DNA from: a virus | Taxonomy: Duplodnaviria > Caudoviricetes | Virus record (IMG/VR): IMGVR_UViG_3300021426_000064 | Coordinates: 64,001-128,000 of that record | Direction: 5' to 3' (one strand) | Length of the DNA: 64,000 nucleotides | Shown here: piece by piece, positions 2 through 49,041 of the stretch | Numbering within the stretch: position 1 is the first letter of the stretch | How the letters are laid out: every line of letters starts with the position of its first letter | Program-made: the position numbers and the translations under genes | The notes under the pieces: generated by a model | What the model was told of the DNA's origin: nothing | Database searches by the model: none | The model's input: the letters and a program-made list of their open reading frames with translations, nothing else

Positions 2-3000
2 GCTATTAAAGAGAAGATGTATGATGTCAGCGGTATTGAAAAAGTATACAGTGGCAAGGAAAAAATAGAAAATCTCGTCGAGAAAATCACAGAGTCTATT
101 TTTGAGCCAACCAGCTTATTCAATCTGAAAGATAATAAAGTTACAAAAGCCGCACAAGACGAATTAGTTAAGCATGGATATTCCCCGTGGGAAGCAGAAG
201 AAATTATTCGTGACCGTGATAAGCGGATGGGGGCAACCAAGAGGTATTTGCGTAATGCTCTGACCCCGATTCTTAGTGCGGGTAATCAGGTAACGCACAG
301 GTTCGATTTAAGCAGAAAACGGCTTGAGCTTATTGATGATTCCAACGGCAACGTGTTTGATATTTCTTATCTGTTGCCGATAGAACGTTATGATTCTAAG
401 ACAGGCCGGTTCTATACACAGTTAGGCAATTCCCAAATTGCTACGCTTAAAACGCTGGGCCGTAGTATGAATGACGAAACCGGTGCGCTAGGGGATTTTG
501 GATTACGTACACAAATCGACATCGCGGCAGACCATTTGGCGCGATACGCAAGATACGCCAATAATACGGGGCGCACAGCAAGCGAAAACATCAGTACACT
601 GCAGTGGGTGATGAAAAAAGCAGTTGAGCTTATTCGTCCCGACAGTGTAACAAGATACGACCATCAGGATAAACGTTTTGGCTTGATGCTCGACTTTATG
701 CCGCTGGTAAAAGAGTTTGGCTATTTTAAGCAGACTGGTGCGTTTACCGACCTAAGCCTTAGTGAGGGGACAACTAAAGCTCTAAATGCCATGGCGAAGC
801 GGCTCGCAAAAGAAAACGAGAACGTAGAAGCCGGCAAAAAGTCTATGGCTGTTAACGATGTAAAACCGGATGAACTCGAAGCCATTTATAAAGACTTCGA
901 TACCATTTTCGGCGCCTTAGCAGAAGATAGTAAGTTTTCACAAGCTGTATTTGGCAATCTGCCACAAAGCAAAAAAGAATACGCACAATCCAGATTAGCT
1001 CATATCAACAGGCATGCCGTCAAAGATCCGAGCAGAGCGCTGGCTTCATTTACAAACACGGGGTATGATGCAACGGCTTTCGCTGGCAAAGATAATCGTT
1101 CCGTAACTGTTGCTACAGCCAGAGCTCGGACGATGGATGTAGACAGCTTCTTACGTGAAGATGAGAGCCGAAAAGAGCTTGTCCGTGGCGGCAGGATTCT
1201 CCTTACCGAAGCTGAAGAAGCCGACATAACGCATGGGCGCTACGGAACCATTCGCACGAGAGCACTGAATATTGATACTTCGGTTTACGAGTCTGTGATT
1301 GCCGCCCGCCTTGAAGACGAAGCAAGCGGTAAGGTTCAAAAGGTATTATCCAGCCTTAAGGATTCGGACGAAGTAGTCCGCTTCTTGAACGAGAACGGCT
1401 CAATAGCTAATCCGCGGCTTCTGCATTTATTCCCGAAAAATATTAATCAGAAACACCTGACGGATGGCCTTATTGATATAGATGAACTCCAAGGCACTGC
1501 AACTATAGAGGCAATAGAAAACGAGAAGAAGGTTCGTCGCGCCACAGAAGAAGTGGTAGAGCTTGTCCGGGAAGCGGATAAGGTCGCCTTCAAATATGCG
1601 GCTGACGGTCGCGGCTGGGAATATGTCCAGCGCGGTGATATTATTGCCTGGGATAAAAGTTATGCCGGTACTCCGTCAAAAGTACGAGCAGAGCGAGAGG
1701 GATATCTTTATAAGCGCTACTTCATGGGAGGACGTGAAGTAGATGAGGCCGAAATCAATGATGTACTCAATAAGCATTTTGACAAATTCAAAGAGTATGG
1801 CAGGGGTGTATCTTCTAAAACCAATGCTGAAATCAGGCAAATAGCGGCAGAGATTTTATCCGGAGAGGGGTACACACTCCGCTACATTGTTAAGTCTGGA
1901 GACGCTCTGGGGTATCAGAAGCTCATAGACAATAAAGAAAAAGCCGTAAACGACTTTTTACTGGCCGGTCTCGGTGAAGCTGATGAAGACATTAAAAAGC
2001 TTTTAGTCCCCAAAGAAGGCGGCGTGGCAAAAAAGGTTCTTCGTCCGTCACCAGAGGCCCTGAAGGATATCGAGCACTTTAATGCTTATCTGGAAGCGAA
2101 TGGGTATCGAGCAATTGACAAAAAATCTATTGCGGATTGGGGCGAATTTAAGAAAAAGGTTATCGCCGAACAGTCGGTTAAATTTGATGCGGTAACACAA
2201 TCGTTACAAGACGCTGGCTTTGTAGATAAGGACACAATCAAAAACGGCGTGAATCGTCTCGGCATTGTTAGCACGGCAATGCTTGAACAGATGAAAGATT
2301 CGCACCGAGAAAATGATCGTATCGAATCCCGTATTGCCGATGCAATCGACGCACATGCTAGAGCAATAGAAGCTGACGAAAAAGCTAAGGCTAAAGCAAA
2401 AGGGGTTAAGTATGCCGGTTCTTTTGAAGCTGCCTATCAAAAAGCATCCGAAGAGATCCTTGGCCAATTGCAGCAGAAAGCTGTATTTAAGGACAAAGAC
2501 GGCAATAATCTTCTCGCCGATTTGGACTTGTCAGCTGAAAGAAGGTATGACGGCATTGTCCTTAGCAATGATTTGTACACCGTCGATATTGATAAGCTGG
2601 ATAAAATCGTTGGCCAATATGTAAAAGAAAACCGCATTACGGCGGATGGTGTTAGCGAAAGTGTTCGAAAAGCAATAGCTTCTTCCATCGAGTACAACGC
2701 CGGTGTAGAGATGGATAAGAAGGAATCGGCGTTCAGGGAAGGCCGCCTATCGCAAGAAGCATACGATAAAGCAAAAGGCGATTTTCAGGATCAAATAAAA
2801 AAGGCTGAAAGAGTTGCCGGCGGTGACAAAAACGAAGTTCTTGGCTATCAAAAAGTATCAGGACTATCCGTAGCCGCAGATGCTGATGAGGTAGGCCTCA
2901 ATAACGGCAGCAACAGCAAAGGCGTAAAGATGACACGCCGTCTTGCCCAGAACCTTAACCAGGAGGTCATGGATGAGAAAGGGCTCGATTCGGTTCGCCT

Positions 3001-6000
3001 GGCTTATGAAAAGATGTTGCAGAATGCCTCAGGGGAAGAACAGCAGCAGGAGATTCTTGACCGCTTTAACAGGCGCTATAAAGACTTTGGTGTATCCGCA
3101 AAATGGAATGCGGAAGATGGCAAGCTGACGGCCACTTACAGCGAGCCGGGAAAGCTACATCGCATAAATGCAGACATAATCAAGAACATGGAAGAGGAAA
3201 TAATCCGTGGTCAGGGATTTGGGGCTATATGGGGTGATGGCGTTAGTACTGGCGGGGTTCGTGGTGTTATCATAGACGGGCATGTTCATGCAGATGATAT
3301 GCGCGAACTTAAACAGCGTGGCATCAGTGAGAAGTCCATCAATACAATGATTAAAGCTTATGAAGAAGCCCACGGAGCTAAAATCATTGGCATGAATAAC
3401 TTCCTTAACCAGTATTCTTATCAGTCCAGTGCCGCGGCCAATGAATTCAACGCCCAGATGGGAAAAGCCGAAACAGAAGCTGAGCGCGCCGAATTAATCG
3501 AACGATTTACCAAAAGCAATCCTGATTTTAATGTAAGAGGAATCTGGGAACTAAACACAGATAAGCAGTTCTTCCAAAATGACCCTCTGAACCCGAATAA
3601 TCGTAATATGATTATTGATATGGGCGAAGGCGCAGTTCAGCGCTACGTTGCCGTGCCAATGGAAAACCTCTCCATGATGGATGCAGCAAATGGAGAAGGA
3701 GTAATATCTGGTTCGGCTGTCCGCGACAATATTAGCAGCCTCCACCACTATTTTGAAGAGCAAAGATATCGCGGCGCTACAGTAAGCGAGTTTTATAAGA
3801 ACAAGTACAATGAAGGAATTAGTGATCTTTTAAAATCGATAGTAAATCTCTCGGTTCACAAAGAAGGCGCTGCAGCTCAGGTAACAAGCGATTATATTAC
3901 GGGGTCTGGCACATTCAAGGCTGATATTATCCGTATGACCGCAGACAATAATTTTGAGACTATTGTTCGTAACGAAGCGGGCGAAGTTGTAAACGGCAAA
4001 AAGAAAGCCTTTGGTTTGATGAATACAGCCAAAGTAGATGGAATGAGTCTTGCTGACCATATCAGGGCCGGGCACAATATTAACGCTACATTCCTTGGTG
4101 AAGATTTCTTTGTAAATGCCTTGCAGGATGACAGTTTGTCTGGAATCTTGGGACAACTCGGTATAAAGGATAATAAAAAAATAGTCAATGACTTCCTCGA
4201 TAATATAAACGATGGCGGCGGATTGGGCTTGCAGATGAGACAGCCTGCCGAGTATAATACGTCAGTTGGTGGTTCGTATTTATTCCTTGACAGAAGTCTT
4301 TCTCGTAACCAGGCAAGAATAACACAAAGTACACTTGCCGGCCAGAACGGCGATAAGGACGGTGACTTGGTTTATGCACTGCTTGCCCGTGCAGATGCAC
4401 AAATTAAAGTCACTGGTGTAAACGAGGACGGAGAAGAAGTTGTATTAAAATCCTTCAATGCTCGCATTAACAATCTGCAGAAAAACCTGATAGAGAATAA
4501 TCTGGATGCCGGGAATCTTGGTATTAAAGACCTGGAGAATTTCTCGGACGTAAAGATAAGCGTAGGTTTTTCCGGGAAAGACCCGTTTGAGGCATACGCC
4601 CGTTCAGCGGAAGTAATTGGTACGTCTTCACTCACAGGCGTAAAAAGAGATGTACTAACGCTTAACGACCTAGACAAAGCTATCAGGATCCGCAACGAAA
4701 AAGCAGAGACAATGGTTGCTGGCAGAGTTTGGAATTCAAATCAGTTGAGCGTGAGTGACCGCAACAAATTCAATGAAGCTTTTGAACAGGAAATTCAGGG
4801 CAGCAAGGAATTTAACCAAGCTATTGAGGAGTACAACAAAGAGAATGGTAAATCAATAACTGCCGAAACCCTGACGGCAGATAGTTTAGCTACGAATTCT
4901 GATGGACAGGGCATTGCAGATAGATACTTGAAAATTCGATACGGTAAAGACACTACGTCGGATGAGTATAATGCAGAGGCCGAAATTCTGGCCAACAGAG
5001 TAAATAAGCTGAATATGGATGATGAAATTGCAGCACATATGGGCAAAGAAAGAGCTGGTATTTTTAACATGAATACCTACCGCATGACCCAGGTTGCACA
5101 TATTATCCGCGATCACGGTTTAGACAATGGCTTAACTGATGCCGACCTAAACATAATTAACCAGTTTATGGTTCATGTCAAGGAAGCTGGTCAGGCTCCT
5201 AAAAACGCGACAGCGACAGCTTCCAGTCTGGAGGGGCTCGACACGGCGCTGAAAGACTTCTGGGGTATTGGCACGGGCCGGAATGGAGTAGTCTATCAAA
5301 AACAGGCAGACCCGACAAAGTTAAACGAACTCATTGATGAGGTTTACGCTGGAGGCATTAAGGAGTTTAAAAAACTTCCGGAACGGATGAAGGATCCGGA
5401 AACCGGCACTGTGAGTGCTGACAGGATTAAGGAAGCTTTCAGCCATCTTATGTCTGAGGGCAATTCCCTTAATGGCGAGCTTTACAAAGCTTTGCGTGTC
5501 GGCTATGCGATGGATATGTCATACACCAATATTGGTACGCCAGATGAAGGCGATATGCTCTACCGTGCTAATCAGATTAAAGATAAGTGGGTAGAAGACA
5601 TTGGGTTTGAAGATGCCAAGACGCAGCACGTCGATATTATGACAACTCCGTCAAGGATCGCGGGAACCTCTGAATTTAGCGACACACCGTATACCCCGGA
5701 CGAAATGATTGGAGATCTTCCGGAAGGCGAGCTGACAATGGGAGATCAGGTGCGAGGCCTGTTAAGTTCGATAAAAAAGAACTTCAAGGGGCATGGTGCG
5801 ATGGCCATGCTCGGTTTTGCCGGAGCCACAATGGCAATCGGTATGGCGGGTGGAGCACCTACCGCACCAACACCGACTCAAGGGCAGGCGCAGGGGATAC
5901 AGCAAGAAAATGCGATTTATGAAATCCCCAGCACGATGAGTATGCAGGGGGTTCAGAGCGGGGCTAACCAGTCATACATTATCAACGTAAATGCATCCAC

Positions 6001-6157
6001 AGATAAGGGGCGCGACTTTGCAACAAATGTAATTAATCAAGCGTTTGCCAATATGCCGCAAGGTGCCGGCGGCAACACCATGACTATGAATATCAAAGAC
6101 TCGTCTAGTAATATCGGCTACAGTGATATTGCTTCATATGTCTCAGACATGTTATAG
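2..6157 (+). CDS. Giant virion protein, 5'-truncated; tape-measure-position protein carrying a putative single-chain two-barrel (beta/beta'-like) RNA polymerase domain
   Basis: Frame is open from position 2 (no stop before ATG 17), so the gene probably starts upstream. Contains MRQP (R at nt 4238) followed 38 aa later by NGDKDGD (4346-4366), like beta' NRAP...NADFDGD. Weaker beta-like motifs are LNENGSIANPRL (~1385), EYVQRGDIIAWDK (~1619) and QKLIDNKEKAV (~1916). The C-terminus has a hydrophobic GAMAMLGFAGATMAIGMAGG segment. It lies just upstream of hub/spike/baseplate genes. Confidence 0.7.
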   Translation, partial: AIKEKMYDVSGIEKVYSGKEKIENLVEKITESIFEPTSLFNLKDNKVTKAAQDELVKHGYSPWEAEEIIRDRDKRMGATKRYLRNALTPILSAGNQVTHRFDLSRKRLELIDDSNGNVFDISYLLPIERYDSKTGRFYTQLGNSQIATLKTLGRSMNDETGALGDFGLRTQIDIAADHLARYARYANNTGRTASENISTLQWVMKKAVELIRPDSVTRYDHQDKRFGLMLDFMPLVKEFGYFKQTGAFTDLSLSEGTTKALNAMAKRLAKENENVEAGKKSMAVNDVKPDELEAIYKDFDTIFGALAEDSKFSQAVFGNLPQSKKEYAQSRLAHINRHAVKDPSRALASFTNTGYDATAFAGKDNRSVTVATARARTMDVDSFLREDESRKELVRGGRILLTEAEEADITHGRYGTIRTRALNIDTSVYESVIAARLEDEASGKVQKVLSSLKDSDEVVRFLNENGSIANPRLLHLFPKNINQKHLTDGLIDIDELQGTATIEAIENEKKVRRATEEVVELVREADKVAFKYAADGRGWEYVQRGDIIAWDKSYAGTPSKVRAEREGYLYKRYFMGGREVDEAEINDVLNKHFDKFKEYGRGVSSKTNAEIRQIAAEILSGEGYTLRYIVKSGDALGYQKLIDNKEKAVNDFLLAGLGEADEDIKKLLVPKEGGVAKKVLRPSPEALKDIEHFNAYLEANGYRAIDKKSIADWGEFKKKVIAEQSVKFDAVTQSLQDAGFVDKDTIKNGVNRLGIVSTAMLEQMKDSHRENDRIESRIADAIDAHARAIEADEKAKAKAKGVKYAGSFEAAYQKASEEILGQLQQKAVFKDKDGNNLLADLDLSAERRYDGIVLSNDLYTVDIDKLDKIVGQYVKENRITADGVSESVRKAIASSIEYNAGVEMDKKESAFREGRLSQEAYDKAKGDFQDQIKKAERVAGGDKNEVLGYQKVSGLSVAADADEVGLNNGSNSKGVKMTRRLAQNLNQEVMDEKGLDSVRLAYEKMLQNASGEEQQQEILDRFNRRYKDFGVSAKWNAEDGKLTATYSEPGKLHRINADIIKNMEEEIIRGQGFGAIWGDGVSTGGVRGVIIDGHVHADDMRELKQRGISEKSINTMIKAYEEAHGAKIIGMNNFLNQYSYQSSAAANEFNAQMGKAETEAERAELIERFTKSNPDFNVRGIWELNTDKQFFQNDPLNPNNRNMIIDMGEGAVQRYVAVPMENLSMMDAANGEGVISGSAVRDNISSLHHYFEEQRYRGATVSEFYKNKYNEGISDLLKSIVNLSVHKEGAAAQVTSDYITGSGTFKADIIRMTADNNFETIVRNEAGEVVNGKKKAFGLMNTAKVDGMSLADHIRAGHNINATFLGEDFFVNALQDDSLSGILGQLGIKDNKKIVNDFLDNINDGGGLGLQMRQPAEYNTSVGGSYLFLDRSLSRNQARITQSTLAGQNGDKDGDLVYALLARADAQIKVTGVNEDGEEVVLKSFNARINNLQKNLIENNLDAGNLGIKDLENFSDVKISVGFSGKDPFEAYARSAEVIGTSSLTGVKRDVLTLNDLDKAIRIRNEKAETMVAGRVWNSNQLSVSDRNKFNEAFEQEIQGSKEFNQAIEEYNKENGKSITAETLTADSLATNSDGQGIADRYLKIRYGKDTTSDEYNAEAEILANRVNKLNMDDEIAAHMGKERAGIFNMNTYRMTQVAHIIRDHGLDNGLTDADLNIINQFMVHVKEAGQAPKNATATASSLEGLDTALKDFWGIGTGRNGVVYQKQADPTKLNELIDEVYAGGIKEFKKLPERMKDPETGTVSADRIKEAFSHLMSEGNSLNGELYKALRVGYAMDMSYTNIGTPDEGDMLYRANQIKDKWVEDIGFEDAKTQHVDIMTTPSRIAGTSEFSDTPYTPDEMIGDLPEGELTMGDQVRGLLSSIKKNFKGHGAMAMLGFAGATMAIGMAGGAPTAPTPTQGQAQGIQQENAIYEIPSTMSMQGVQSGANQSYIINVNASTDKGRDFATNVINQAFANMPQGAGGNTMTMNIKDSSSNIGYSDIASYVSDML

Positions 6158-6164
6158 ACTTTAC

Positions 6165-6200
6165 AAAAGACCAGGGCAATAGTTTCTGGTCTTCTTTTTT
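6165..6200 (+). terminator. Probable intrinsic terminator
   Basis: Stem AAGACCAG (6167-6174)/CTGGTCTT (6186-6193) followed by CTTTTTT, directly after the TAG stop. Confidence 0.65.
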
Positions 6201-6223
6201 ATAGAAAACTCGGAGGAAATAAA

Positions 6224-9200
6224 GTGGTAACTGATTTTATAAACCCCGCAATCGGCTTGCCGGATATGGGGGATTTTTACTACGATGCACCTGATCAGGA
6301 ATCGTATTTTGGCGAAATGGATAAAAACCTCAACTCTGTTAGGCGTGACAGAGCCAATTCTGCGGAAGCGTACAGATTCTATCAGGAAGACCCTCCGCAG
6401 CCCGGCGCCGATGAACAGGGAAAAGTCTATGTTTTTGACGTAGAACTTGGCGCAAAAGGTATCGGCGATGACAGTGAAGAAGTGGCTGGCATTAAAGTAG
6501 ACGACGGCGACACGCTTGCAATCCCCGTCGGAAGTATTCATCCAGCCGACGAGAAAAGTGAAAAATACCTGAGCTATATAAAGGGGTATACCAGCACTCA
6601 TAATAGCAGTGGAGAGGCCACGGCTGTAAATGTTCGTTTTGCGGGACTCGATACAAAGGAATTGCCCCATTATCGCAAGATTGGCATGGACGAGCTCAAC
6701 CAAAAAGAGCTGTCTCAGGTAGACCTCGGCACAGCCCTTGGGAATAAAAATTATATGGTGTCCAAGTACAAAAGCTGGATGCAGACTCGCAAAACATTGG
6801 ACAAAGCTTACGACGGCTACAAAACCAAAGGCACGTTCTTTGACTATGCGCAGCCCAGTGATAGTGTTGTAAATGTGGTAAAACTGGACGACGATAAATA
6901 CCATCAGTATTTTTCTGATGGTACAAACGGCTATGTCCTTGTAGCAAATGCAACAAATGATTACAGTCCGGAAACCATTGCTGATGCAGGCATTGGTCGT
7001 GATGTTGTAGTAAATGCGCTAAACGATGCAGAAGCTATGCGTATTGTGGTGGATGGTACGCAGATTACCCGTGATGGCGGCAACATCAAAACAATGTTTA
7101 ACACAGAACTGTACGGATCGGGATTCGAAAATGAAGCAAGACGCCAATTAGATATGCTTTTTGACTCCTATACAAAACACCAGCGCCCCGGTTTTAATAC
7201 ATGGGGGCAGGATGCGTATGGCCGCTGTATTAGCGCTGTCTATGTCAAAATTAAGGGCCAGTGGATTAACCTTAACAAACTGGTTATTGCCGATACAAAC
7301 ATGACGGAGATTAACAAGTATAATGATGGCGATCAGGCTTCCACAGCAATTAATCTGGATAGCTACGAATATGACAAGAAAGCCTATGCCGATAGTTTGT
7401 ACGCCGACACGAGCAAGTTTGACGATCGTGAACAGGTGCAGAAACAGATTTTTGGACAAACCTGGAAAGCCCTGAAAGATTGGACGGTTACAATTGGTGA
7501 TGTGACGCTTTTTGTACCGCCGACCAGTATTCGCACACTTACACAGACTAAGGCTGAAAGAATGCCGCTTATCCGTGCAAAAGGGTCTATGGCAAAAAGC
7601 TCGACAAAGAACCAGCGAATCATTGAGATGGACTTGTATTTCAATGAAGACCGCGGCATTAACGGCTATGAATATAAAACCAATACCCGTCCGGATAATA
7701 AAGGTAAGAATGTCACATACTGGATGAATGGGCTGCGCGCGCTGTATGCTCAGTTTCGTGTAGCACCATTTTTGCCAATAGAAAGCTATTACATCAATAC
7801 TGTGTTAGGTGTAGATGCAGTTTCGCTTGTGAGTTTCTCCTGCGAGACGGTTCCTAATTTTCCTAAGCTGATAAAAGCCACAATCCAGTTGTCTGAGTTT
7901 GAGTATCGCATTTATATGCCGGAAATCCCCTTTGATGACGGCAGCGATGATGATACGGAGGTTCGTAATTACTTTAGTAAGCAGATAAACTATCCGCTGT
8001 TCCGCTACTATTACCAACGACTGCTGCGGAACGGCGAAGAGTTGAGAGGGGTTAAATTCCTCGACAAAAAGTACATCACCAGCACCTTTGGCAACAAAAC
8101 ATGCCTTGTCCCAGCTAACTTCGTAGATCCGTACATTCGATTCTATGTACCGAACAAAAATCAGTTGGAAAGATTAAAGAAGGCAAAGCTTGAACGCATG
8201 GCTCGCCCCAACACAGTTCGCGACATAACGAAGACTGAGCTTAACTTTGCCGATGAGATGGCAAAAGTAAAGAATGAGATAGATTATATTAATACCTCAC
8301 AGTCGCCACTCGATAAGGTCAATGATTATTTAAAGGCGCCGGAGCTCGATGGCTATGTTCTTGCTGGCGTTAACAACCGGATGGTGATTGGTAAAGCTGG
8401 CGCGGCCGGCACTTTTGTACCGGATGAAGAGAAGACAAGAGAATTAGAAAGCCTGCTTAGTGAGGCAACAACCTACTATGAAGTGGGACTTACTTCTTTA
8501 AAAAGAGAAGATGGCCAGCCTCTTTGCCAAAAACAAGGGGCAACAACATTCGGTCCGTCTAATTCTGACGGTTCTATTTACGGCGCCGACTTTTCAATCA
8601 ATGTTGAATATCCGGATATATCCGAAGACTCTCTTAACAACTTGAGGACATTATCTTCGATTTCAGGCGTTGCCTCTGCGGACGAAACCTTTGTTAACAG
8701 AAACCTTCGTCTTAGAATGTCTGTAGACTTTGGGGAGAGTAATCTGACGTATGCGTCAAATTTGTTAAAAGGCGCCGCGCTCGGTAAGGGCGAATCCTTA
8801 TTCTACTTTGATGTTAATGCAGACTCGAGCTTCTTAAATTTCCTTGCCGAAGTAAACAATAAACAGGGGGTAGGCGGTAACGAAGACGCTAACGGCGCAA
8901 AAGCGTTAGTTGATTTTGTAAGTTCTGCTACATTAGAATTTGAGCCGTATAATGATGATGAAGACTTCTTGGTAGAAGCTATTCACATCAACACCAGCAA
9001 CACATTTGCTCAGGTAACTCTGCAGGAAACGTCAGGGTATGCTCCTCAGTATATGGGAGGAACAGATGTATCTCTTCAGATTAGTATGTATACGCAGAGT
9101 AAAAAGGCAGCCTCTGCAATTAATGCGCTGCCGCATGTATCGGCGGAATTTGCCCGCAATTATCGATTGGTTCTGGCGGCGTGGCCATTAAAAATCGAAA

Positions 9201-12200
9201 CGGAGTTTACTAAGCTGTTTGGCATCACCGATGTAATGGTGGAAGCTTGTGAAGTGGATACGGTTCCGAATTATCCTGGGCTTTATCATATTACAATGAG
9301 CCTGGTATCCGTAGACAGGTCTCTGCGTAATAGAGAATCTCTACAACAGAAAGATATGAAAAACTTCCACAACCTGTCTGTGCAAGGTATCGCTCGTGAG
9401 CGCAGATGGTCCTACACGCAGATGACAGAATATCTTTCTGAGGCAGAATTGTATCCGGATCTTGAATTACCAACTCTTAAGGAGCTGGCAGAGAATGGTT
9501 TTAATTTTATCCGCTACTCAAATACAAAGCGTGTTTATCCTGATCCGGATTTCTACTTCACGTACAGCTATGTCTTAATGAGCCAGCTTATTCGAGAAGC
9601 TGTGCTTAATTCGCTTAACTCCGATGCGTGCCAGACGGTAATTAAAGATACGACGGGCAAGGAAATCAGCGGCAGTCTTGCAAACCGCATGGGCTCCTGG
9701 AATCGAAATTATGAATTATCCAGGGGGTGGGATAAGGACCTTAGTTCCGTATTCCAGAATGACGACCTTATTACCGCCCGCATTATTTCTGATTACGAGA
9801 ATGTTGCTGACGACGAACGCGATGAAACATGGACAATAGCACCAAATGTGAAGGTGGCCATGATGGAAAAGCGTATGCTTAACCGCATTAACGATTCTTC
9901 CAAGCAAAGCTATCAGGAAAAGAACGGAGCAAATATTCATTCGTCTACGACATATGATAATGCGGATGGAATAAAGAAACCAGTGACTGGTCAAACAACC
10001 GAAACCGATAAAGACGGCAATGTGACCGAGTTAAAGGATGCGCCAGACAATACCGGTAATACCGGATTGTCAAATGAAGACAATAAGGGAAATCTCGAAA
10101 GGTTAAAGCAGCAGCAACAGGATATCAAAGATGAAAAAGCTACAGGTAAATATTCCTCTGCCATGTATAAAAAGAACGAGGAAATTTCCAATCGTATAAA
10201 CGGTGTTATTAAACATTATCAAAACACGTCGATTGACGAAATGGGCGGCAGTATTGGAGATGCCGTACAGCAACTGGTTGCTGCGTTCAATACTTGCCCC
10301 AAATACAATAACTCGCACATAGAAGGTGTTCCAGGACAAGGCAGGAGCGAAATACCAAACGGGTTGTTTGGTAAAATCCCCGCATTCTTGGATGCGGCTG
10401 CTGACGCCATTTGCAGTAATAACGGTGTTGACTACAGTGAAGAGACGGCAGACCATTTAAACGCCGCCGCTACGGCATTTGGAGGTACAGTTGCAACATC
10501 AATGGGTGTCGGTGCAGCGATAGGTTCGGTTGCAACACCAGTTGGAACAGTAGCAGGTGTAGCAGCTGGTGCTGCAGTGGGAACAGTAGCTGGTACAGTA
10601 GCAGCTGTCGCATCGGTAGCGACAGGAGCGCACTCTAAAAATGAAAAAGCTCCGTGGAGACACAGCACTAAGTATCGCGGGCGGCTTAAAATCGATGGCG
10701 TAGAACAAGTGTGGGCTTTCGATGACAAGGATCCGAAAAAGGATTACAAAATCGAAATGATTGCAAAGAACGCTACCGAGTTTGGGTATTTTAACTTCAA
10801 GTTCTATACACCGGAAGAATTAGAAGACCGGTTTGGTTACTATGGCCATATCGAACGGGACGACACGGTAGAAAATAGCGAAACTGTTGTAGAGGCTCAT
10901 CCTCGTGTTGGAAGGTACTTGGCTGACCCGTATTATCGGTATGCAAACGCAGAAGTGCAAGAAGCGTATGTTAAGAAGTGCCTAACTGATTATGATTTTG
11001 CCAAAAAAGCATTCCTTAGAATCTGTATGCTGTATATGCAGGTGTTGGTAAGCTACAGCATTTTCCCGTCGTTCTCTTATGACGTAATGCGGGATGCTTT
11101 TACCAATGAAGAGAATATGCGAAAAGTTTTGGCTGGCGTTGAAGAACTGCGAGCAAAGAAAGCTGCAGAGGAAAGAACTAAATCCGAAACGCAAAAACAG
11201 TACGGCACGTCCAAGAAGTATTCTCAGAAAAAACAGCCAGGAGAAGTGAAAAAGGATGCTGCCAGCGTAGTATCATATGTTGGTGATGCCATCCCTGAGG
11301 GAGAAAAAGGCAAAGAAGCAGAAGGTAAGGATACAGAAGCCAAAGAAGGGAACGCACAAGAGAATAACGGCGATAAAAAATCGAGTACAGACAAGGCTGC
11401 TACCGAGCAAGCCACGACAGATTCTGCCAATGCTAAAAAGACGGCAGTGCTCAATAAGTCGTTATCGGATTATGCCAAGAAGATTAACGAGAACAAAGAA
11501 GCTATGGACAATGGCAAACTGTTCCTCATGTGCGCCATGGGTGTTGTCGATGGAGATAAGAATTTCCTTAAACTTCTTCTTAACAGAGAATACGATTCCT
11601 TGAATGCAATCGCAATGGCAGCATGTAGCGGAAAAACGTCTCCAAATAAGAAGGATGCTACGTACGAAACGCGCCTTCGGAGCTTTATTCGGGCATTGGC
11701 CGGTGAAAATGTTATTGACAACTCGTTGATTGGTTCTGGTGAAACTGAGGCACCGGCAGCCGTTTTAGGGGAGAATAACTCCCGTTATAACTGCTCGGCT
11801 GCTGCTGAAGACCCGACCATGTATATGGTGCACAGCTTCTATGATATGGTCGTCCATGATTGCCGTGGGAGAATGCTTCGAGCCTTCCCAACATTCTATA
11901 TGTTTTTCATTGATGAAGGACGCAAGATTGGTAAGTTCAGGCTTCATGACAACTTCTACAACATAAATGCAATCTCCAGTATAACGATTTCAAAGTCACG
12001 CAAAAACCCTACTGACGTAGCGGAAGTCGTAATGACCAACTTCTTTAATACATTTACAACAGAAGATGAAGATTTGAATATGAACTATTCGACGAATTTT
12101 ACGGATGTATTTAAATCTTTGTGGCTGCCTACCTTGCAGTCCTATGCTGTAGATGAAGAAGAGCGCCGCACAAACGCCCCTAAGGCTGAACGATTCAGGT

Positions 12201-14992
12201 TACGACCGGGCGCAAGGGTTCATATCCGTATTGGCTATGGCGCCGATGCTTCTCATCTGCCGATTAGTTTTAATGGGATGATTGCGGAAGTAGATAACGG
12301 CGATGTAGTAAAACTCATTTGTCAAAGCGATGGCGGAGAAATCTGTAAGCCCATTCTTCTAGAAAAGAAAGCGTCAGAACTTCAGGGGATTGATGGCGTT
12401 GGTTGGTCATCCGTTGCTGAAAACGGCGATACCCCGAAGAGTATTATGCGTAGCCTGATGTGCTTAAAAGGCGGGCTTATCAATTCCTATATGCACGATA
12501 AAGGCTGGGATGACGCGGCAAATCTTATTGGTACGCCAATAAACCCGTTAGGAATTTATCACTTTGGTAATCCCGATATGGCATATGCCGGAGACCCCGA
12601 ACCAGTACAAAACATCTTCGAGATTGGCCTTAAGGCAGGTTCGGACCGATACCTAAACGTCTCAGGGGATGACCATAAAGAAGGCGTGCTTGAGGGAATG
12701 GTAAATACCATTAAGGGCAAGGATGAGGATATTGCAACACACCTGCAGTTCGAAGTGTTCGGCAAAACTGTCTGGGATGTAGCAAATATCTGCCGGAGCA
12801 CCGATCCGGAATACTACGCGGCTGTCCGGCCATTCCATATGCGCTCTACATTATTTATCGGGCGCGCGCATGACTACTATGCTTATGATTATGAGCAAAA
12901 GGGCGGCACATGGATTGAAAAGCGCAAGCCATTCCAGCAGGCGCATATCTATACGTCACTCTCTGATATTATTGACAATCGGCTGGCGGTTTCTCCAAAA
13001 GACATCAAGACGTGCGCTATTGGCATGTATGAAGTAGAAGGCTTTATGAATGCCAGGGTACAGAAGAAAACCGACCCACAGTGGGTAGATGCAGCAATAT
13101 ATCCGGAGTACCAAAAAACAATGTATGTAGATACAAAACTCTTTGGTGAAGCGTCTAGAAAGCTTGGCATCATAAGTGATGTTACTGGGTGGTTTACCAA
13201 TGGTGTATTCAATAGCTGGCTGGATCGTGGTTTTGACAAGGAGGGCGATGCGCAAAATCATCATGCTCTCGCAGTAAAGATGACCATTAGTGCCCTTAAG
13301 GACGCGATGAAAGAAATGTATCAAGGGAATATTGTTGTTATTGGCGACCCAACAGTACAGCCTAACGATCGCATAATCCTAAACGATACATACAATTACA
13401 TCAACGGGCAGTGCCTTGTCCGCGATGTAGTTCAAGTATTCTCCAGTGAAAATGGTTTTAGAACAGTGCTTACACCGGATCTCATCACCACACAGGTGGG
13501 GGATGCGTCTGCTGGGGAATCTAAAAATCAGTCCTTTGGCTGTCTTGGTGTAAATACTGTAGTTGGCACACTGGGCGCGATTTGCGGAGCGAAGCTTATG
13601 CAGGGGGCAGCATCAGGATTGTTTAAAAGCCTGCAGAGCATAAAAAACAGCGAGAATGCTGTAAAAGTTGGTAACTTAATCAAAAGCACAGGCTCTGCTA
13701 TAAATGAAAGCAAGGTTGTGCAGGTCGGTAAAAATGTTCTTGGTGGGTTTTCGAAATTTGGCAATGCTTTAAGTAAGATTGGAAGTGTTGCTCGTGCAGT
13801 TTCAACTGTAGCCAGTGGAGCTGAAGCAGTAGCTGGCGCAGTGGCCGGCGGCGCAGAGGCTGTAGCCGCTGCGGTCACGGCTGGAGGCGCGGCAACGGCG
13901 GCGGCAATTGCTGCTCCACTTGTTCCGGTATTTATATTGGGGCTTGGTGCCATAGAAGATATTGTGGCAAGTAAATTCAATAGCAGGAAGACGCTAGTAA
14001 TATTCCCGTTAATGAAATACAACAAGCCATATGTTGGCGGAATTGATGGCCACGTTGGTTCTGTGTACGGAGCACCAAACTTTGGATCTGAAGATGCAAT
14101 ACAGTCTATATTTACGACGCTGTCGAATGCAAGCAACTACCCCTATTTTTCGAAAGTGGTAAACGCCCTGTTCGGAAAAGACGGTATTATGGATATTCAT
14201 CAGAGCTTTGGTTTGGATGAGTGCCAGAAGATTGCTAACGATGAAGGTCTTGCGCAAACTGCATATCGCCAAATAAACAATAGCCAAATAAACAACTTCT
14301 CGAAAGCATCTTTTAACCCGCTTAAGCCGCGCATGTCTGTACGGAGTAACAATGCCATTCAAAAAGCAAAAGCCCTTTATGGCGTAACCGGAAAAACTCC
14401 TGACGATATAAATGCGGATACAAAGATGAAGGAAATGAAGAGCGTTATTCATGACGAGACATTGAAGCAATACTTCACTAATGGGTTCTTCCGTGTAGCA
14501 GCACACGAGAAAGGTTTTACAGCAGATATCAGTGACAAGATTGAATGTATCTGTATTAAAAATCCAGACAGTGAAGAATACTACTACATTAATGCTATCC
14601 TGGACAGTAATGGGTGCTATGACATACCATTTGTACACAAAGAAGCGGCGGGAGTCCTGCATGATATCATTGTGAGGTCGTTTGTTTTTATGGCTGGTAC
14701 AGAACAAGAACGCGATGCATATAAATGGTATGAAGACAATAAAGGGTCATTCATAACACTGACTTCGGCCTTAAAGTGTGGCTCGTCCAAGAATTATGAA
14801 TCCACAGGCTTCTCGTTTGTATTAACCGCCTCGGACGATAAATCTCAAAAGGCGCTTTCTAGTGCTATTGATTTTATCAATCGCCAAATGGCGGAAACGC
14901 ATAATAAGATGGAGGCTGTACCAGAGGCAGTAATGACTAAGAAGGAAAGTGGCCGAGATGTATTTATTGTAGTGCATCCGCCACAGAGGTAA
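6224..14992 (+). CDS. 2922-aa multidomain virion protein: N-terminal thermonuclease (SNase) domain, duplicated tail-initiator-like domain, baseplate hub (gp27/late-control D)-like region
   Basis: GGAGG RBS and GTG start. SNase motifs VDDGDT, VRFAGLDTKE, QDAYGR and INLNKLVI. Duplicated motif ETVPNFPKLIKATIQL / DTVPNYPGLYHITMSL. Hub-like motifs LRPGARVHIRIGYG...FNGMIAEV and GNIVVIGDPTVQPNDRI...VRDVVQVFSSENGFRTVL. Two Gly/Ala-rich hydrophobic segments. Confidence 0.7.
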   Translation: MVTDFINPAIGLPDMGDFYYDAPDQESYFGEMDKNLNSVRRDRANSAEAYRFYQEDPPQPGADEQGKVYVFDVELGAKGIGDDSEEVAGIKVDDGDTLAIPVGSIHPADEKSEKYLSYIKGYTSTHNSSGEATAVNVRFAGLDTKELPHYRKIGMDELNQKELSQVDLGTALGNKNYMVSKYKSWMQTRKTLDKAYDGYKTKGTFFDYAQPSDSVVNVVKLDDDKYHQYFSDGTNGYVLVANATNDYSPETIADAGIGRDVVVNALNDAEAMRIVVDGTQITRDGGNIKTMFNTELYGSGFENEARRQLDMLFDSYTKHQRPGFNTWGQDAYGRCISAVYVKIKGQWINLNKLVIADTNMTEINKYNDGDQASTAINLDSYEYDKKAYADSLYADTSKFDDREQVQKQIFGQTWKALKDWTVTIGDVTLFVPPTSIRTLTQTKAERMPLIRAKGSMAKSSTKNQRIIEMDLYFNEDRGINGYEYKTNTRPDNKGKNVTYWMNGLRALYAQFRVAPFLPIESYYINTVLGVDAVSLVSFSCETVPNFPKLIKATIQLSEFEYRIYMPEIPFDDGSDDDTEVRNYFSKQINYPLFRYYYQRLLRNGEELRGVKFLDKKYITSTFGNKTCLVPANFVDPYIRFYVPNKNQLERLKKAKLERMARPNTVRDITKTELNFADEMAKVKNEIDYINTSQSPLDKVNDYLKAPELDGYVLAGVNNRMVIGKAGAAGTFVPDEEKTRELESLLSEATTYYEVGLTSLKREDGQPLCQKQGATTFGPSNSDGSIYGADFSINVEYPDISEDSLNNLRTLSSISGVASADETFVNRNLRLRMSVDFGESNLTYASNLLKGAALGKGESLFYFDVNADSSFLNFLAEVNNKQGVGGNEDANGAKALVDFVSSATLEFEPYNDDEDFLVEAIHINTSNTFAQVTLQETSGYAPQYMGGTDVSLQISMYTQSKKAASAINALPHVSAEFARNYRLVLAAWPLKIETEFTKLFGITDVMVEACEVDTVPNYPGLYHITMSLVSVDRSLRNRESLQQKDMKNFHNLSVQGIARERRWSYTQMTEYLSEAELYPDLELPTLKELAENGFNFIRYSNTKRVYPDPDFYFTYSYVLMSQLIREAVLNSLNSDACQTVIKDTTGKEISGSLANRMGSWNRNYELSRGWDKDLSSVFQNDDLITARIISDYENVADDERDETWTIAPNVKVAMMEKRMLNRINDSSKQSYQEKNGANIHSSTTYDNADGIKKPVTGQTTETDKDGNVTELKDAPDNTGNTGLSNEDNKGNLERLKQQQQDIKDEKATGKYSSAMYKKNEEISNRINGVIKHYQNTSIDEMGGSIGDAVQQLVAAFNTCPKYNNSHIEGVPGQGRSEIPNGLFGKIPAFLDAAADAICSNNGVDYSEETADHLNAAATAFGGTVATSMGVGAAIGSVATPVGTVAGVAAGAAVGTVAGTVAAVASVATGAHSKNEKAPWRHSTKYRGRLKIDGVEQVWAFDDKDPKKDYKIEMIAKNATEFGYFNFKFYTPEELEDRFGYYGHIERDDTVENSETVVEAHPRVGRYLADPYYRYANAEVQEAYVKKCLTDYDFAKKAFLRICMLYMQVLVSYSIFPSFSYDVMRDAFTNEENMRKVLAGVEELRAKKAAEERTKSETQKQYGTSKKYSQKKQPGEVKKDAASVVSYVGDAIPEGEKGKEAEGKDTEAKEGNAQENNGDKKSSTDKAATEQATTDSANAKKTAVLNKSLSDYAKKINENKEAMDNGKLFLMCAMGVVDGDKNFLKLLLNREYDSLNAIAMAACSGKTSPNKKDATYETRLRSFIRALAGENVIDNSLIGSGETEAPAAVLGENNSRYNCSAAAEDPTMYMVHSFYDMVVHDCRGRMLRAFPTFYMFFIDEGRKIGKFRLHDNFYNINAISSITISKSRKNPTDVAEVVMTNFFNTFTTEDEDLNMNYSTNFTDVFKSLWLPTLQSYAVDEEERRTNAPKAERFRLRPGARVHIRIGYGADASHLPISFNGMIAEVDNGDVVKLICQSDGGEICKPILLEKKASELQGIDGVGWSSVAENGDTPKSIMRSLMCLKGGLINSYMHDKGWDDAANLIGTPINPLGIYHFGNPDMAYAGDPEPVQNIFEIGLKAGSDRYLNVSGDDHKEGVLEGMVNTIKGKDEDIATHLQFEVFGKTVWDVANICRSTDPEYYAAVRPFHMRSTLFIGRAHDYYAYDYEQKGGTWIEKRKPFQQAHIYTSLSDIIDNRLAVSPKDIKTCAIGMYEVEGFMNARVQKKTDPQWVDAAIYPEYQKTMYVDTKLFGEASRKLGIISDVTGWFTNGVFNSWLDRGFDKEGDAQNHHALAVKMTISALKDAMKEMYQGNIVVIGDPTVQPNDRIILNDTYNYINGQCLVRDVVQVFSSENGFRTVLTPDLITTQVGDASAGESKNQSFGCLGVNTVVGTLGAICGAKLMQGAASGLFKSLQSIKNSENAVKVGNLIKSTGSAINESKVVQVGKNVLGGFSKFGNALSKIGSVARAVSTVASGAEAVAGAVAGGAEAVAAAVTAGGAATAAAIAAPLVPVFILGLGAIEDIVASKFNSRKTLVIFPLMKYNKPYVGGIDGHVGSVYGAPNFGSEDAIQSIFTTLSNASNYPYFSKVVNALFGKDGIMDIHQSFGLDECQKIANDEGLAQTAYRQINNSQINNFSKASFNPLKPRMSVRSNNAIQKAKALYGVTGKTPDDINADTKMKEMKSVIHDETLKQYFTNGFFRVAAHEKGFTADISDKIECICIKNPDSEEYYYINAILDSNGCYDIPFVHKEAAGVLHDIIVRSFVFMAGTEQERDAYKWYEDNKGSFITLTSALKCGSSKNYESTGFSFVLTASDDKSQKALSSAIDFINRQMAETHNKMEAVPEAVMTKKESGRDVFIVVHPPQR

Positions 14993-14996
14993 ATAA

Positions 14997-15359
14997 ATGG
15001 GAGTACTTGGAAATGCAATGAAAAATGGTGTCATTGGCGAAGCTATGCGCTCCGCCAATCGGGACCAACAGACTGTTGCCAAAGTACTCAGCGCAGATGA
15101 GTCCAACAATCAGTGTACTGTAGAGTACATGGATAGGGACGGAAGTAAGGTAAAAATAGATAAGGCTATGGTGGATCTGCGGAATAAGGACTGGTTCCCC
15201 AGCAAGGGGGACATAGTCCTTATCCGTGTATCTGGCCGTTCTGCGCTAGTGGAGCAGCAGTACACAGAAGATTATAATGCGGATGTCCGTAGTAAACAGA
15301 AGTTAAGTAACGACGTCACCCCGGATGGTGACGGAACTGTAGCAGGTTCAATTTTTTGA
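14997..15359 (+). CDS. Putative baseplate spike OB-fold protein (gpV/gp5 N-terminal-like)
   Basis: AKVLSADESNNQCTVEY...WFPSKGDIVLI matches the OB-fold pattern (P-x-x-G-D-x-V) and follows the hub-like gene. Confidence 0.55.
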   Translation: MGVLGNAMKNGVIGEAMRSANRDQQTVAKVLSADESNNQCTVEYMDRDGSKVKIDKAMVDLRNKDWFPSKGDIVLIRVSGRSALVEQQYTEDYNADVRSKQKLSNDVTPDGDGTVAGSIF

Positions 15360-15366
15360 GGAAATT

Positions 15367-16452
15367 ATGGCAGAAAATAAATCAGAAAAGTTTGCACTGC
15401 AGGTTGGTGCGGTAAAGCCAGACTTGCGGGCAAATATCAATGCACTGAGAAAGCGGGCGGATTATGCTGACCGTTCCACTGACTCAGCTATGGTGGGCAA
15501 TAACGGCAATGCCTCTCTACGCCTGTTCGATAAGAAAATAAATCAGGCAGCATCCCAGAATTCGTCCCAAAAGATGACAGATAAGCAAAATATCACCACA
15601 TCTTTTGAGGAACGTCATGTGACCAACAGATATAGTTTGGAAGCCTATGACTTTATCTTTAATGGTCATAAGCTCAATCCTAACCTCTGGGAATATAGCG
15701 ATTTTAAGAAGTATACGGATATGTATGGGCAGGAACATGCAGTCGGCGGTTTTACCATGATGGGTACTATTCTTACCCCGTCATGGGATGAACAGCTGCA
15801 TCGGTATGTTCTCATCCGACGTCAGACACGTATGCCGTTCTTCTCGCCGAAGAATAATGTGCCGGAAATCTTAAAGACCCTGAATATTGACGACCCGACC
15901 AAAGTCGCCTACAAATACGGCGTAAAGCAGTCGTCCGAAACGGCACAACAGTATTATGAACGCGTAGGCAAGAACTTCGACCAGAAAAAATATTACACTG
16001 GCGCTACCGCACCGAATCCAAATGGTGGCGGCGCTGGCACTGCTACGGCAGAGATTATTGAAAAGGCTGTTCAATGGTGTATTAAGATTGCTAACGATGA
16101 GGATGGTCAGATTCATCACTATTCCCAGCAGAACAGACAAGGCCCGGATTATGATTGTACGTCTTTCGTATGTGCTGGTTTGCAAGCGGGTGGACTGGAT
16201 ATTCCGTTTTTGGGTGGCGGAGATTTTGATAATGCAATCTTAAACTATGGTTTTGAACGACTCCCATTCCCCGGTCTTGAGGGGTTGCAGCGCGGGGATA
16301 TCATGAGCAATCCGTCGCATGTTGAATGGTATATCGGTAACAACCAGCGTTGCGGTGCGCATACCGATAGTAAGCCTGCTGAAAAACAGATTAGTGTAGA
16401 GCAATATTGGGAAGGTCAGGGGTGGACAGATATTTTCCGATATAAAGGGTGA
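15367..16452 (+). CDS. Tail-associated protein with C-terminal NlpC/P60 (papain-like) peptidoglycan endopeptidase
   Basis: YSQ...GPDYDCTSFV (catalytic Cys), LQRGDI...SHVEWYIG (His) and CGAH; Gly/Pro linker before the domain. Confidence 0.8.
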   Translation: MAENKSEKFALQVGAVKPDLRANINALRKRADYADRSTDSAMVGNNGNASLRLFDKKINQAASQNSSQKMTDKQNITTSFEERHVTNRYSLEAYDFIFNGHKLNPNLWEYSDFKKYTDMYGQEHAVGGFTMMGTILTPSWDEQLHRYVLIRRQTRMPFFSPKNNVPEILKTLNIDDPTKVAYKYGVKQSSETAQQYYERVGKNFDQKKYYTGATAPNPNGGGAGTATAEIIEKAVQWCIKIANDEDGQIHHYSQQNRQGPDYDCTSFVCAGLQAGGLDIPFLGGGDFDNAILNYGFERLPFPGLEGLQRGDIMSNPSHVEWYIGNNQRCGAHTDSKPAEKQISVEQYWEGQGWTDIFRYKG

Positions 16453-16455
16453 TTA

Positions 16456-18210: not shown

Positions 18211-18222
18211 GGTGGTGGAAGA

Positions 18223-18747
18223 ATGCTAGATTTAGAAATGACGGACAATGGAGATCTTGCATGGTCTTCGGTGTCGAGCTCGGGCGCTTTTCATTTAAGG
18301 TTTGCGCTGGCAGATTACAAAACGCAGCATATACATTTTCTTTGTAGGCCGACAAGCCGTTTGCAAAACAAACATCGCAAGGGGCAGCGCATTCGCTTCT
18401 GTTTTGCGGAACCAGGAGAAGAGTTTAAGGTACAAACCGGCTTGGTTCAGAATGAAGATGAACGACTACAAGCACTCTACATTGCACTTCGCACAGAGCT
18501 TGGCGATGTAAATGACGATACGGTGGGTTCTGATTTCTATAAAGAGGCTCACCATATCATAGCAGATGCTAATGATTTATCGACTATCCGTGATAAAGCT
18601 GCGGAAGTAGTTGAACGCTTCTTTCCGGGCTCAGTCCTCGAAGCTGAATACTCAATATGTCCAGAGGCAAAAAACTTTAAGTATCAGTCAGTGAAGTTTA
18701 CAATAAAAGATAAAGACAACGAGGTTGTAGCTTCGTTTGTATTCTGA
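18223..18747 (+). CDS. Putative baseplate wedge/sheath initiator (gp25/XkdS-like)
   Basis: MLDLEMTDNGDL N-terminus and LQALYIALRTELGD...VGSDF pattern; position in the baseplate cluster. Confidence 0.55.
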   Translation: MLDLEMTDNGDLAWSSVSSSGAFHLRFALADYKTQHIHFLCRPTSRLQNKHRKGQRIRFCFAEPGEEFKVQTGLVQNEDERLQALYIALRTELGDVNDDTVGSDFYKEAHHIIADANDLSTIRDKAAEVVERFFPGSVLEAEYSICPEAKNFKYQSVKFTIKDKDNEVVASFVF

Positions 18748-18773
18748 GAGAGCGAAAGCTCTCTATTTTTTTT
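18747..18773 (+). terminator. Intrinsic terminator insulating the NAD operon from upstream transcription
   Basis: AGAGAGC-GAAA-GCTCTCT followed by ATTTTTTTT. Confidence 0.8.
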
Positions 18774-18803
18774 GAAAAAATTTGCTTTGCTGTAAAAATA
18801 GTC

Positions 18804-18832
18804 TTGACAAATGTGGTAATGTGTACTACGAT
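18804..18832 (+). promoter_or_regulatory. Sigma-A/70-type promoter of the NAD salvage operon
   Basis: TTGACA (18804-18809), 17-bp spacer, TACGAT (18827-18832); AT-rich upstream. Confidence 0.8.
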
Positions 18833-18855: not shown

Positions 18856-18871
18856 AAAAGAGGTTGATTAT

Positions 18872-20201: not shown

Positions 20202-20202
20202 A

Positions 20203-49037: not shown

Positions 49038-49041
49038 TAAC

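Follow-up and report, generated by a model that had tools for sequence, protein, structure and literature searches.

A tail-module giant protein with a predicted beta/beta' RNA polymerase core in an uncultured jumbo myovirus

Virion-delivered RNA polymerases (RNAPs) are known from few phage groups, namely N4, the crAss-like phages, the phiKZ-like phages and P23-45, the last of which has a tape-measure-fused virion RNAP, gp96, in addition to a non-virion RNAP (PMC10770324; PDB 8H2M/8H2N; Chaban et al. 2024). Here we describe P0003, a giant protein encoded in the tail module of the virus IMGVR_UViG_3300021426_000064 (Duplodnaviria; Caudoviricetes), which carries a predicted, strongly diverged RNAP core of the beta/beta' type in a single chain. 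The stretch of DNA analysed (the window) comprises 64,000 nucleotides, bases 64001-128000 of a 184,341-bp IMG/VR record with an estimated completeness of 78%; coordinates preceded by G000 are those of the record, and all features given by window coordinates lie on the plus strand. The source is an uncultured jumbo myovirus with a genome of about 235 kb, a distant relative of Bacillus phage 0305phi8-36, and the only pointer to its host, the nearest cultured relatives, suggests a member of the Bacillota.

P0003 resembles gp96 of P23-45 in that a two-barrel RNAP lies within a giant protein of the tape-measure slot, in its proposed role, the transcription of the first genes on entry, and in the probable presence of a second, separately encoded single-chain RNAP in the same phage. 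An earlier reading of the window made from the letters and their translations (the sequence-only reading), which proposed an injected, tape-measure-fused RNAP for this gene, had cited the tape-fused RNAP of P23-45 as a precedent, and this precedent is real. However, gp96 is a member of the YonO/crAss/QDE-1 clade, with a flat shape and no clamp, whereas the predicted folds of P0003 are of the beta/beta' type and include the clamp region. The polymerase of gp96 is N-terminal and is followed by about 4,000 residues of ruler, while that of P0003 spans residues 1380-2620, approximately, with about 480 residues after it. Moreover, P23-45 is a siphovirus and the phage encoding P0003 a myovirus, and the two proteins share no sequence similarity.

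The multisubunit RNAPs of phiKZ and AR9 are minimal beta/beta' cores lacking alpha and omega, and phiKZ-type phages also package a virion copy. In contrast to the single chain of P0003, encoded as a tail-module giant, these enzymes consist of four to five polypeptides that are detectable with profiles. The virion RNAP of phiKZ-type phages is carried in the head and is not encoded in the tail module. As in P0003, gp66 of the crAss-like phage phi14:2 (PDB 6VR4) and QDE-1 of N. crassa are single-chain two-barrel proteins with a DxDGD motif, and gp66 is a giant, ejected virion protein; both, however, belong to an RNA-dependent RNA polymerase (RdRP)-like clade without the flap-type insert, and crAss-like phages are podoviruses. 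The Corynebacterium NCgl1702-type fusions of mobile elements are likewise giants of more than 2,000 residues in which beta-like and beta'-like parts are joined (Iyer 2003; PMC2919709). They evolve very fast, with about 40 core residues still recognisable (PMC2919709), were reported to lack the SBHM/flap insert (PMC7824862) and have no known tail encoding, and it is by this description that they are set apart from P0003. The 0305phi8-36-like group (Iyer's group 3) has been credited with a YonO-like RNAP only (PMC7824862). In the literature searched we found no beta::beta' fusion of the multisubunit type in a tape-measure-slot giant of a contractile-tailed jumbo phage. Tail-fused and virion RNAPs being already known, what P0003 adds is the beta::beta' type together with a putative exonuclease, in a one-chain family, invisible to sequence methods, of jumbo myoviruses distantly related to 0305phi8-36.

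Extent, fold and lineage of P0003

Within the window the gene appears as an open reading frame (ORF) at positions 2-6157 (frame 2) that is open at its 5' end, i.e., cut by the window edge. The complete gene lies at G000 60849-70157 and encodes 3,102 residues; it starts 3.15 kb upstream of the window, which holds the C-terminal 2,051 codons and the stop codon (window 2..6157), residues 1-1051 being encoded upstream (G000 60849-64000). Because of this truncation the sequence-only reading saw residues 1052-3102. Its giant, polymerase-like gene is real, but the length is 3,102 residues and not 2,051, and the N-terminal part with its DEDDh-like motifs lay outside its view. Residue numbers used here are those of the full protein, with window-ORF numbers in parentheses. 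All the peptides that had been quoted were located in frame 2 of the plus strand: LQMRQPAEYN at residue 2461 (1410), GDKDGD at 2501 (1450), LNENGSIANPRL at 1513 (462), EYVQRGDIIAWDK at 1591 (540), QKLIDNKEKAV at 1690 (639) and the hydrophobic GAMAMLGFAG at 2983 (1932).

Family alignments of 19-20 sequences served as input for two AlphaFold2 models, one of residues 2000-2700 (predicted local distance difference test, pLDDT, 79.7; predicted TM-score, pTM, 0.72) and one of residues 1380-2060 (pLDDT 80.6, pTM 0.78). The former contains a beta'-like module, residues 2202-2613 (window 3452..4687), that matches residues 23-625 of E. coli beta', comprising the clamp core and the catalytic double-psi beta-barrel (DPBB); the corresponding model residues 203-614 aligned to this region with Z 9.5-10 over 255-285 residues. 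A Foldseek search with this model returned 285 PDB chains at E<=1e-3 and, among the matches listed, the top ones were all beta'/Rpb1. In a second search, which used a Foldseek-independent aligner on 48,161 representative chains, 13 of the 14 top matches were largest RNAP subunits or single-chain two-barrel RNAPs (Z 8.0-9.4), among them Pol II, archaeal A', M. tuberculosis beta', the vaccinia enzyme, the non-virion RNAPs of AR9 and phiKZ (Z 8.5) and QDE-1; the one exception, at rank 10, was a chain titled 'P74 gp62', the identity of which could not be verified. The match to P23-45 gp96 (Z 6.9) was over the barrel, 86-90 residues, and plain DPBB domains ranked below. In the predicted model DKDGD is situated in an inter-strand loop of the barrel that aligns with the DPBB of beta'/Rpb1 and with isolated DPBB domains, so that the surroundings of this motif are predicted to form a double-psi beta-barrel within a module resembling the N-terminal half of beta'. 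The closest viral fold neighbours of the same model included a 'minor tail protein' of an uncultured siphovirus and an uncharacterised protein of Acinetobacter phage ME3, and uncharacterised proteins of crAss-like phages were among the weaker viral matches.

The second model contains a beta-like module, residues 1380-2025 (window 986..2923), that matches E. coli beta 552-1266, a DPBB with a flap-type insert, at Z about 12 with 300-364 residues aligned. Its top 50 Foldseek matches were all beta/Rpb2, but with weak E values (8e-3 to 0.1). In the Foldseek-independent search the top nine were all second-largest RNAP subunits (Z 9.6-12.4), headed by chain C of the phiKZ non-virion RNAP, and unrelated helical hairpins reached a Z of at most 8; the phiKZ and AR9 multisubunit enzymes (PDB 7OGP/7OGR and 7S00) were the best neighbours of this module, with Z 12.4-12.8 and 11.1, respectively. 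With the beta-like model as query, a shape search of the ESM Atlas retrieved domains of the biotinyl/lipoyl and barrel-sandwich-hybrid kinds, none above TM 0.2, which we treat as a lead, and the predicted complex of the two modules scored 0.01, which speaks neither way.

Since separate beta and beta' fold matches were obtained in the right order on one chain, the models indicate that P0003 is a fused, single-chain beta::beta' enzyme of the multisubunit type, in which the C-terminal two thirds of beta are followed by the N-terminal half of beta'. The extent of the match, which includes the clamp region and a flap-type insert (flap, SBHM, and clamp features as defined for the lineages in PMC7824862), and the ranking of the matches place P0003 nearer to the multisubunit lineage than to the YonO, RdRP, crAss and P23-45 enzymes. 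The sequence-only reading, which drew its precedents from crAss-like phages and P23-45, needs correction in this respect: the single-chain group (crAss gp66, QDE-1, YonO, P23-45) is not the nearest, and the phiKZ and AR9 non-virion RNAPs and the bacterial RNAPs are closer than QDE-1 (Z 8.1 over 145 residues) or gp96. For reconstructions of how two-barrel polymerases evolved, the P0003 family would supply a deeply diverged branch.

Sequence comparison gave no hint of this core. Searches with P0003 against Pfam and PHROGs, as well as tblastn against 50,697 phage records, returned nothing useful, and comparison with PDB sequences (phmmer and an hmmsearch profile) gave no relevant match, the best being a de novo protein and antibodies. 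Alignments of the P0003 family profiles to E. coli beta and beta' with hhalign were not significant; the sole stretch aligned to beta' placed the DKDGD of P0003 on NADFDGD, at E 0.09. The Pfam RNAP models PF00623, PF00562 and PF05183 found nothing on the whole record, and RNA_pol_Rpb1_2 and RNA_pol_Rpb2_6 had no match at E<=10 across its 184 kb, although 14 of 14 control genomes were positive. As Pfam, PHROGs and BLAST miss a core that structure prediction finds readily, many genes of uncultured phages annotated as 'tape measure' or 'hypothetical giant' may encode enzymes.

Conservation of the catalytic residues

An exhaustive phmmer search with residues 1501-2700 of P0003 against 1.84 billion cluster representatives identified 21 clusters, mostly of 2,660-3,412 residues with a few shorter fragments; a word-indexed search also recovered close relatives. 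The homologues stem from ENA, JGI and Logan assemblies, on contigs of up to 327 kb. The D-x-D-G-D motif was kept in 21 of the 21 homologues covering the site, at 19-40% identity, with x being K, T, Q, M, F, V, N or A. In P0003 this motif, the predicted metal-binding aspartate triad, is DKDGD at residues 2502-2506 (window 4352..4366). An alignment of 15 full-length relatives, with a mean column identity of 29%, showed R2464, P2466, Y2469, S2472, D2502, D2504, G2505, D2506, K2338 and K2357 to be invariant, together with E1515, E1697, K1698, K1816, H1819 and R2031. The invariant R2464-Q-P2466-x-x-Y2469-x-x-S2472 (window 4238..4264) parallels R425-A-P-T-L-H of beta', and SKxG...GSGxFK, which contains the invariant K2338 and K2357 (window 3860..3919), parallels GKQG...YSGRSVI at the barrel start of beta'. 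The distance from the arginine to the first aspartate is 38 residues in P0003 (R2464 to D2502) against 35 in E. coli beta' (R425 to D460, rpoC), as had been noted from the sequence. Both R-x-P and DxDGD are, then, conserved in the homologues, and a double-psi barrel is predicted around the latter, so that the sequence-only reading withstood the two observations it had named as refuting it.

The weaker beta-like motifs that the sequence-only reading had listed upstream fall inside the segment that folds like beta 552-1266, where E1515, K1691 and K1698 are conserved. E1515 (window 1391..1393), invariant and contained in LNENGS, is the candidate counterpart of beta E813/D814. In the predicted model it precedes the first barrel strand and is followed, before K1691, by a beta-rich insert with EYVQRGDIIAWDK. 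K1691-x6-K1698 (window 1919..1942), the candidate counterparts of the beta active-site lysines K1065 and K1073, are placed by the model on a beta-hairpin (model strands 310-315 and 318-323); K1698 is invariant, and K1691 was present in about 14 of 15 relatives on a by-eye reading of the alignment. The order E1515, K1691, K1698 is that expected for the second barrel (DPBB-B). Compared with Rpb2, the lysine spacing is 7 instead of 8 (K979, K987), and the acidic residue is E1515 in place of D837. On the basis of the models, E1515, the EYVQRGDIIAWDK insert and K1691/K1698 may plausibly be equated with beta E813/D814, the flap and K1065/K1073, respectively. Ruprich-Robert and Thuriaux listed eight universal residues of two-barrel polymerases; Rpb1 R446/P448 are the invariant R-x-P of these enzymes, and Rpb2 K979, K987 and D837 are the residues of the second barrel (PMC2919709). 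P0003 matches five of the eight (R, P, D, D and D, the beta' side), and plausibly all eight.

Judged from composition, a protein as long as P0003 should contain 0.06-0.09 copies of DxDGD; when an R-x-P 30-45 residues upstream is required as well, the expectation falls to about 0.001-0.002. On its own the motif is weak evidence, because four copies occur among the six-frame ORFs of the record; we took that of P0003 as real because its family-wide conservation decides the matter.

Tail-module context and alternative explanations

BLASTP of the ORFs of the record against Bacillus phage 0305phi8-36 and Moorella phage MTATph1 revealed a collinear tail module in the order sheath, tube, tube paralogue, gp142-like protein, gp143/144-like chaperones, gp145-like giant, P0003 and gp147-like hub, and the synteny extends to ME3. 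P0003 occupies the gp146 slot and, like gp146 in 0305phi8-36, is separated from the gp143/144-like chaperones by a single gene; the tape-measure position claimed for the gene is therefore borne out by synteny with the three phages. In the 0305phi8-36 record gp146 is annotated as 'hypothetical tape measure protein' and as a virion protein by mass spectrometry, gp145 as a virion component by the same method and gp147 as the baseplate hub. The tape-measure assignment of gp146 by Hardies et al. was made mainly from tail length (PMC2147016). Like P0003, to which it is similar in size, gp146 (2,537 residues) is flanked by the gp145 and gp147 homologues and carries a hydrophobic segment some 110 residues before its C-terminus; unlike P0003, it lacks DxDGD and any RNAP signature, and neither hidden Markov model (HMM) nor BLAST comparison finds similarity between the two.

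The same arrangement of giants was found with four distant P0003 homologues; three of them show all three giants and the fourth, at a contig edge, shows the downstream one. In this virus the gp145-like giant (2,231 residues; G000 54098-60793, plus strand) is a homologue of gp145 and of MTATph1 CDS26 and contains an HNH motif at its residues 1968-1999, and the baseplate hub giant with a lysin part (2,922 residues; window 6224..14992) is a gp147 homologue that matches phrog_20474 'endolysin'. The three consecutive giants form a conserved block of about 8,250 codons.

Considering both the fold and the position of the gene, the best explanation, and in our judgement a fairly probable one, is that P0003 is a tail-module protein with a beta/beta' RNAP centre that is delivered by the tail and transcribes the first phage genes. 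Its putative RNAP core runs from about residue 1380 to 2620, perhaps to about 2980, preceded by a DEDDh-like region and followed by a hydrophobic segment and a conserved tail. Given a diverged beta/beta' core in the protein of this slot, it is probable that the phage brings along, with its DNA, a transcription enzyme of its own. What was computed here is the fold, the conservation of the catalytic motifs and that of the gene order; from these we infer the packaging, ejection, template and timing as follows. P0003 would be assembled in the tail lumen as the occupant of the tape-measure position, its C-terminal end lying at the hub, and expelled by contraction of the sheath; its hydrophobic segment may assist membrane crossing or anchoring; and the polymerase would refold in or at the host cell and transcribe the first phage genes without the host RNAP, perhaps also helping to draw the DNA in. 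The YonO-like polymerase P0027 (G000 5418-8741) may take over later. We regard as rather doubtful, though worth stating, a more elaborate version in which a complete beta::beta' RNAP travels through the lumen of the contractile tail, becomes anchored in the membrane by its C-terminus, and transcribes and pulls in the genome at the entry pore, while host or nascent nucleic acid is the target of the DEDDh exonuclease, the whole having originated independently of P23-45, crAss and N4.

Several points weigh against tail delivery of a working polymerase. The presence of P0003 in virions and its ejection are deduced from gene order, and among the occupants of this slot it is only the non-homologous gp146 of 0305phi8-36 that has been seen in virions; comparison of P0003 with gp146 and with known tape measures by BLASTP, HMM, hhalign, Pfam or PHROGs shows no significant similarity. 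The role of tape measure could really belong to the gp145-like giant, because it directly follows the tail chaperones, and with a polymerase module of roughly 1,250 to 1,600 of the 3,102 residues little ruler-like sequence is left in P0003. A core of the multisubunit type would need to pass unfolded through the tail tube, which raises the question of how a cell-type RNAP core unfolds and refolds. The models cover the C-terminal two thirds of beta and the N-terminal half of beta', so that a complete enzyme, with the C-terminal half of beta' (bridge helix and trigger loop) and the N-terminal lobes of beta, can only be presumed, and the beta-side catalytic residues were assigned from conservation and fold position, not from a residue-level structural alignment. 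Finally, because the record is 78% complete, other RNAP genes may be missing from it.

That packaging is deduced from gene order, and that P0003 lacks similarity to gp146 and to known tape measures, also suits the view that it is a working RNAP that is not packaged, a non-virion enzyme merely lying within the late structural operon. Phages of the phiKZ type do have non-virion RNAPs, and the best fold matches of P0003 are the non-virion enzymes of phiKZ and AR9. Yet the gene is flanked by the gp145 and gp147 homologues, all on one strand and separated by short gaps, in an order kept in four distant relatives, and its conserved C-terminal hydrophobic segment and tail are hard to explain for a cytoplasmic enzyme. 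Furthermore, an enzyme made only with the late genes could not serve early transcription, and for a non-virion role the YonO-like candidate P0027 is already available. We consider this possibility unlikely.

Scarcely different in our estimate, and if anything a shade less likely, is an active two-barrel core that is not a promoter-dependent transcriptase and instead synthesises primers, copies RNA or acts as a genome-pulling motor. RNA-dependent polymerases and PolD are also two-barrel enzymes (PMC10770324, PMC2919709), polymerase-mediated injection was raised by Hardies et al. for the 0305phi8-36 lineage (PMC2147016), and an exonuclease-like domain in the same chain points to nucleic-acid chemistry of another kind. 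However, the fold match extends beyond the barrels into the beta' clamp region and, in beta 552-1266, a flap-type insert, both characteristic of DNA-dependent multisubunit enzymes (PMC7824862), and the nearest structures are DNA-dependent transcriptases.

It is more improbable still that P0003 is a structural relic, an RNAP-derived fold that persists in a protein of the tail lumen or of ejection and has no polymerase activity. The slot protein of ME3, ME3_36, bears on this idea: it lacks DxDGD and sequence similarity to P0003, it may be a degenerate relative, and, if it is the ME3 fold neighbour mentioned above, the chemistry can be lost in this slot. In the P0003 family, by contrast, the catalytic residues are the most conserved positions at 19-40% identity, which is expected only under selection for catalysis. 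Chance look-alikes of the motifs in an ordinary tape-measure protein, a notion fed by the four DxDGD copies of the record and by the failure of every sequence method to tie P0003 to RNAP, are ruled out by the conservation of DxDGD in 21 of 21 homologues and by two independent fold matches, beta and beta', in the right order.

Concerning the occupants of the slot in other phages, BLASTP, HMM and hhalign comparisons of P0003 with gp145, gp146, the MTATph1 giants and ME3_36 found no similarity, and DxDGD is absent from the MTATph1 slot genes, ME3_36 and gp146. The ME3 protein among the viral fold neighbours (BFVD A0A172Q021_2) ranked third for the beta'-like model, at E 3.3e-7; its BFVD piece has a size suggesting that the protein may be ME3_36 (1,603 residues, same slot; 9459-14270 of the ME3 stretch L013). 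The slot gene of MTATph1 is apparently split by a transposase (CDS27, transposase CDS28 and CDS31; 12036-19392 of the MTATph1 stretch L005), and CDS31 carries a C-terminal hydrophobic segment and the tail motif.

Terminal regions, a second polymerase candidate and neighbouring genes

The N-terminal part of P0003 contains motifs of the DEDDh pattern, D196-x-E198 (Exo I), N364-x4-D369 (Exo II) and H482-x4-D487 (Exo III), which are invariant or nearly so in 15 homologues. The region that holds them (residues 190-490) gave weak Pfam hints in two of 15 members (DNA_pol_B_exo1, 0.0039; RNase_H_2, 0.024) and no match in the PDB profile search or in hhalign against E. coli DnaQ. On these motifs we consider the chances of an N-terminal 3'-5' exonuclease domain of the DEDDh (DnaQ/RNase T-like) type to be about even.

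Downstream of the modelled core, a possible bridge helix (ERAGIFNMNTYRMT..., with the invariant G2737; window 5045..5128) resembles beta' ARKGLADTALKTA in its pattern; around G2737 this pattern is R-x-G-[LI]-x-[DN]-[TM], like the start of a bridge helix, and we offer it as a lead. An ESM Atlas feature search with residues 2610-2980 was uninformative. The single hydrophobic segment, rich in Gly and Ala, spans residues 2983-3003 (window 5795..5857), and all the homologues checked have it some 100-120 residues ahead of their C-terminus; both this segment and the location of the gene directly before the hub gene agree with what had been read from the window. The C-terminal tail (window 5858..6154) is the most conserved part of the family (mean conservation 0.64-0.77), and we propose that it anchors the protein to the hub or tail tip.

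The slot occupants P0003, 0305phi8-36 gp146, MTATph1 CDS31 and ME3_36 all have a hydrophobic segment some 110 residues before their end, and by eye they share the C-terminal motifs Y-x-[IV]-N-V...K-G-x-D and [LM]-N-I-x-D-x-S. The P0003 C-terminal HMM scored the C-termini of gp146, MTATph1 CDS31 and ME3_36 no better than shuffled sequences, and for this reason we do not claim the likeness as homology.

The second polymerase candidate, P0027, has 1,108 residues and is encoded on the minus strand, at the G000 position given above, among replication genes. Its motif KYP...AGSDRDGDK was invariant in five homologues. Distant homologues are longer and contain helix-hairpin-helix (HhH) domains, while here a separate HhH gene lies downstream (G000 3456-5321, minus strand). 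By ESM Atlas language-model features P0027 adjoins clusters with Pfam RdRP (19 of 30 matches, score 0.92); no Pfam or PHROG match, hhalign link to the beta'-like profile or phage tblastn match was found for it. Phage 0305phi8-36 has a YonO-like protein, ORF99 (PMC2147016; PMC7824862), and P0027 is, as a lead from its motif and features, probably a second, non-virion two-barrel RNAP of the YonO type akin to it. If so, P0027 and P0003 would together follow the two-polymerase logic of P23-45.

Several other genes of the record deserve mention. Between the hub and the baseplate genes a run of NAD-related genes (window 18872-22921) encodes Nudix/NrtR-like, phrog_19305, NMN adenylyltransferase, nicotinamide/nicotinate phosphoribosyltransferase-like and NAD synthetase proteins. 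A protein of 980 residues (window 34962-37904) showed strong collagen-like repeat matches to many tail-fibre PHROGs. An Rnl-type RNA ligase is encoded within the tail module (G000 48356-49501, plus strand), and an RtcB ligase near the right end of the record (G000 174366-175568, minus strand).

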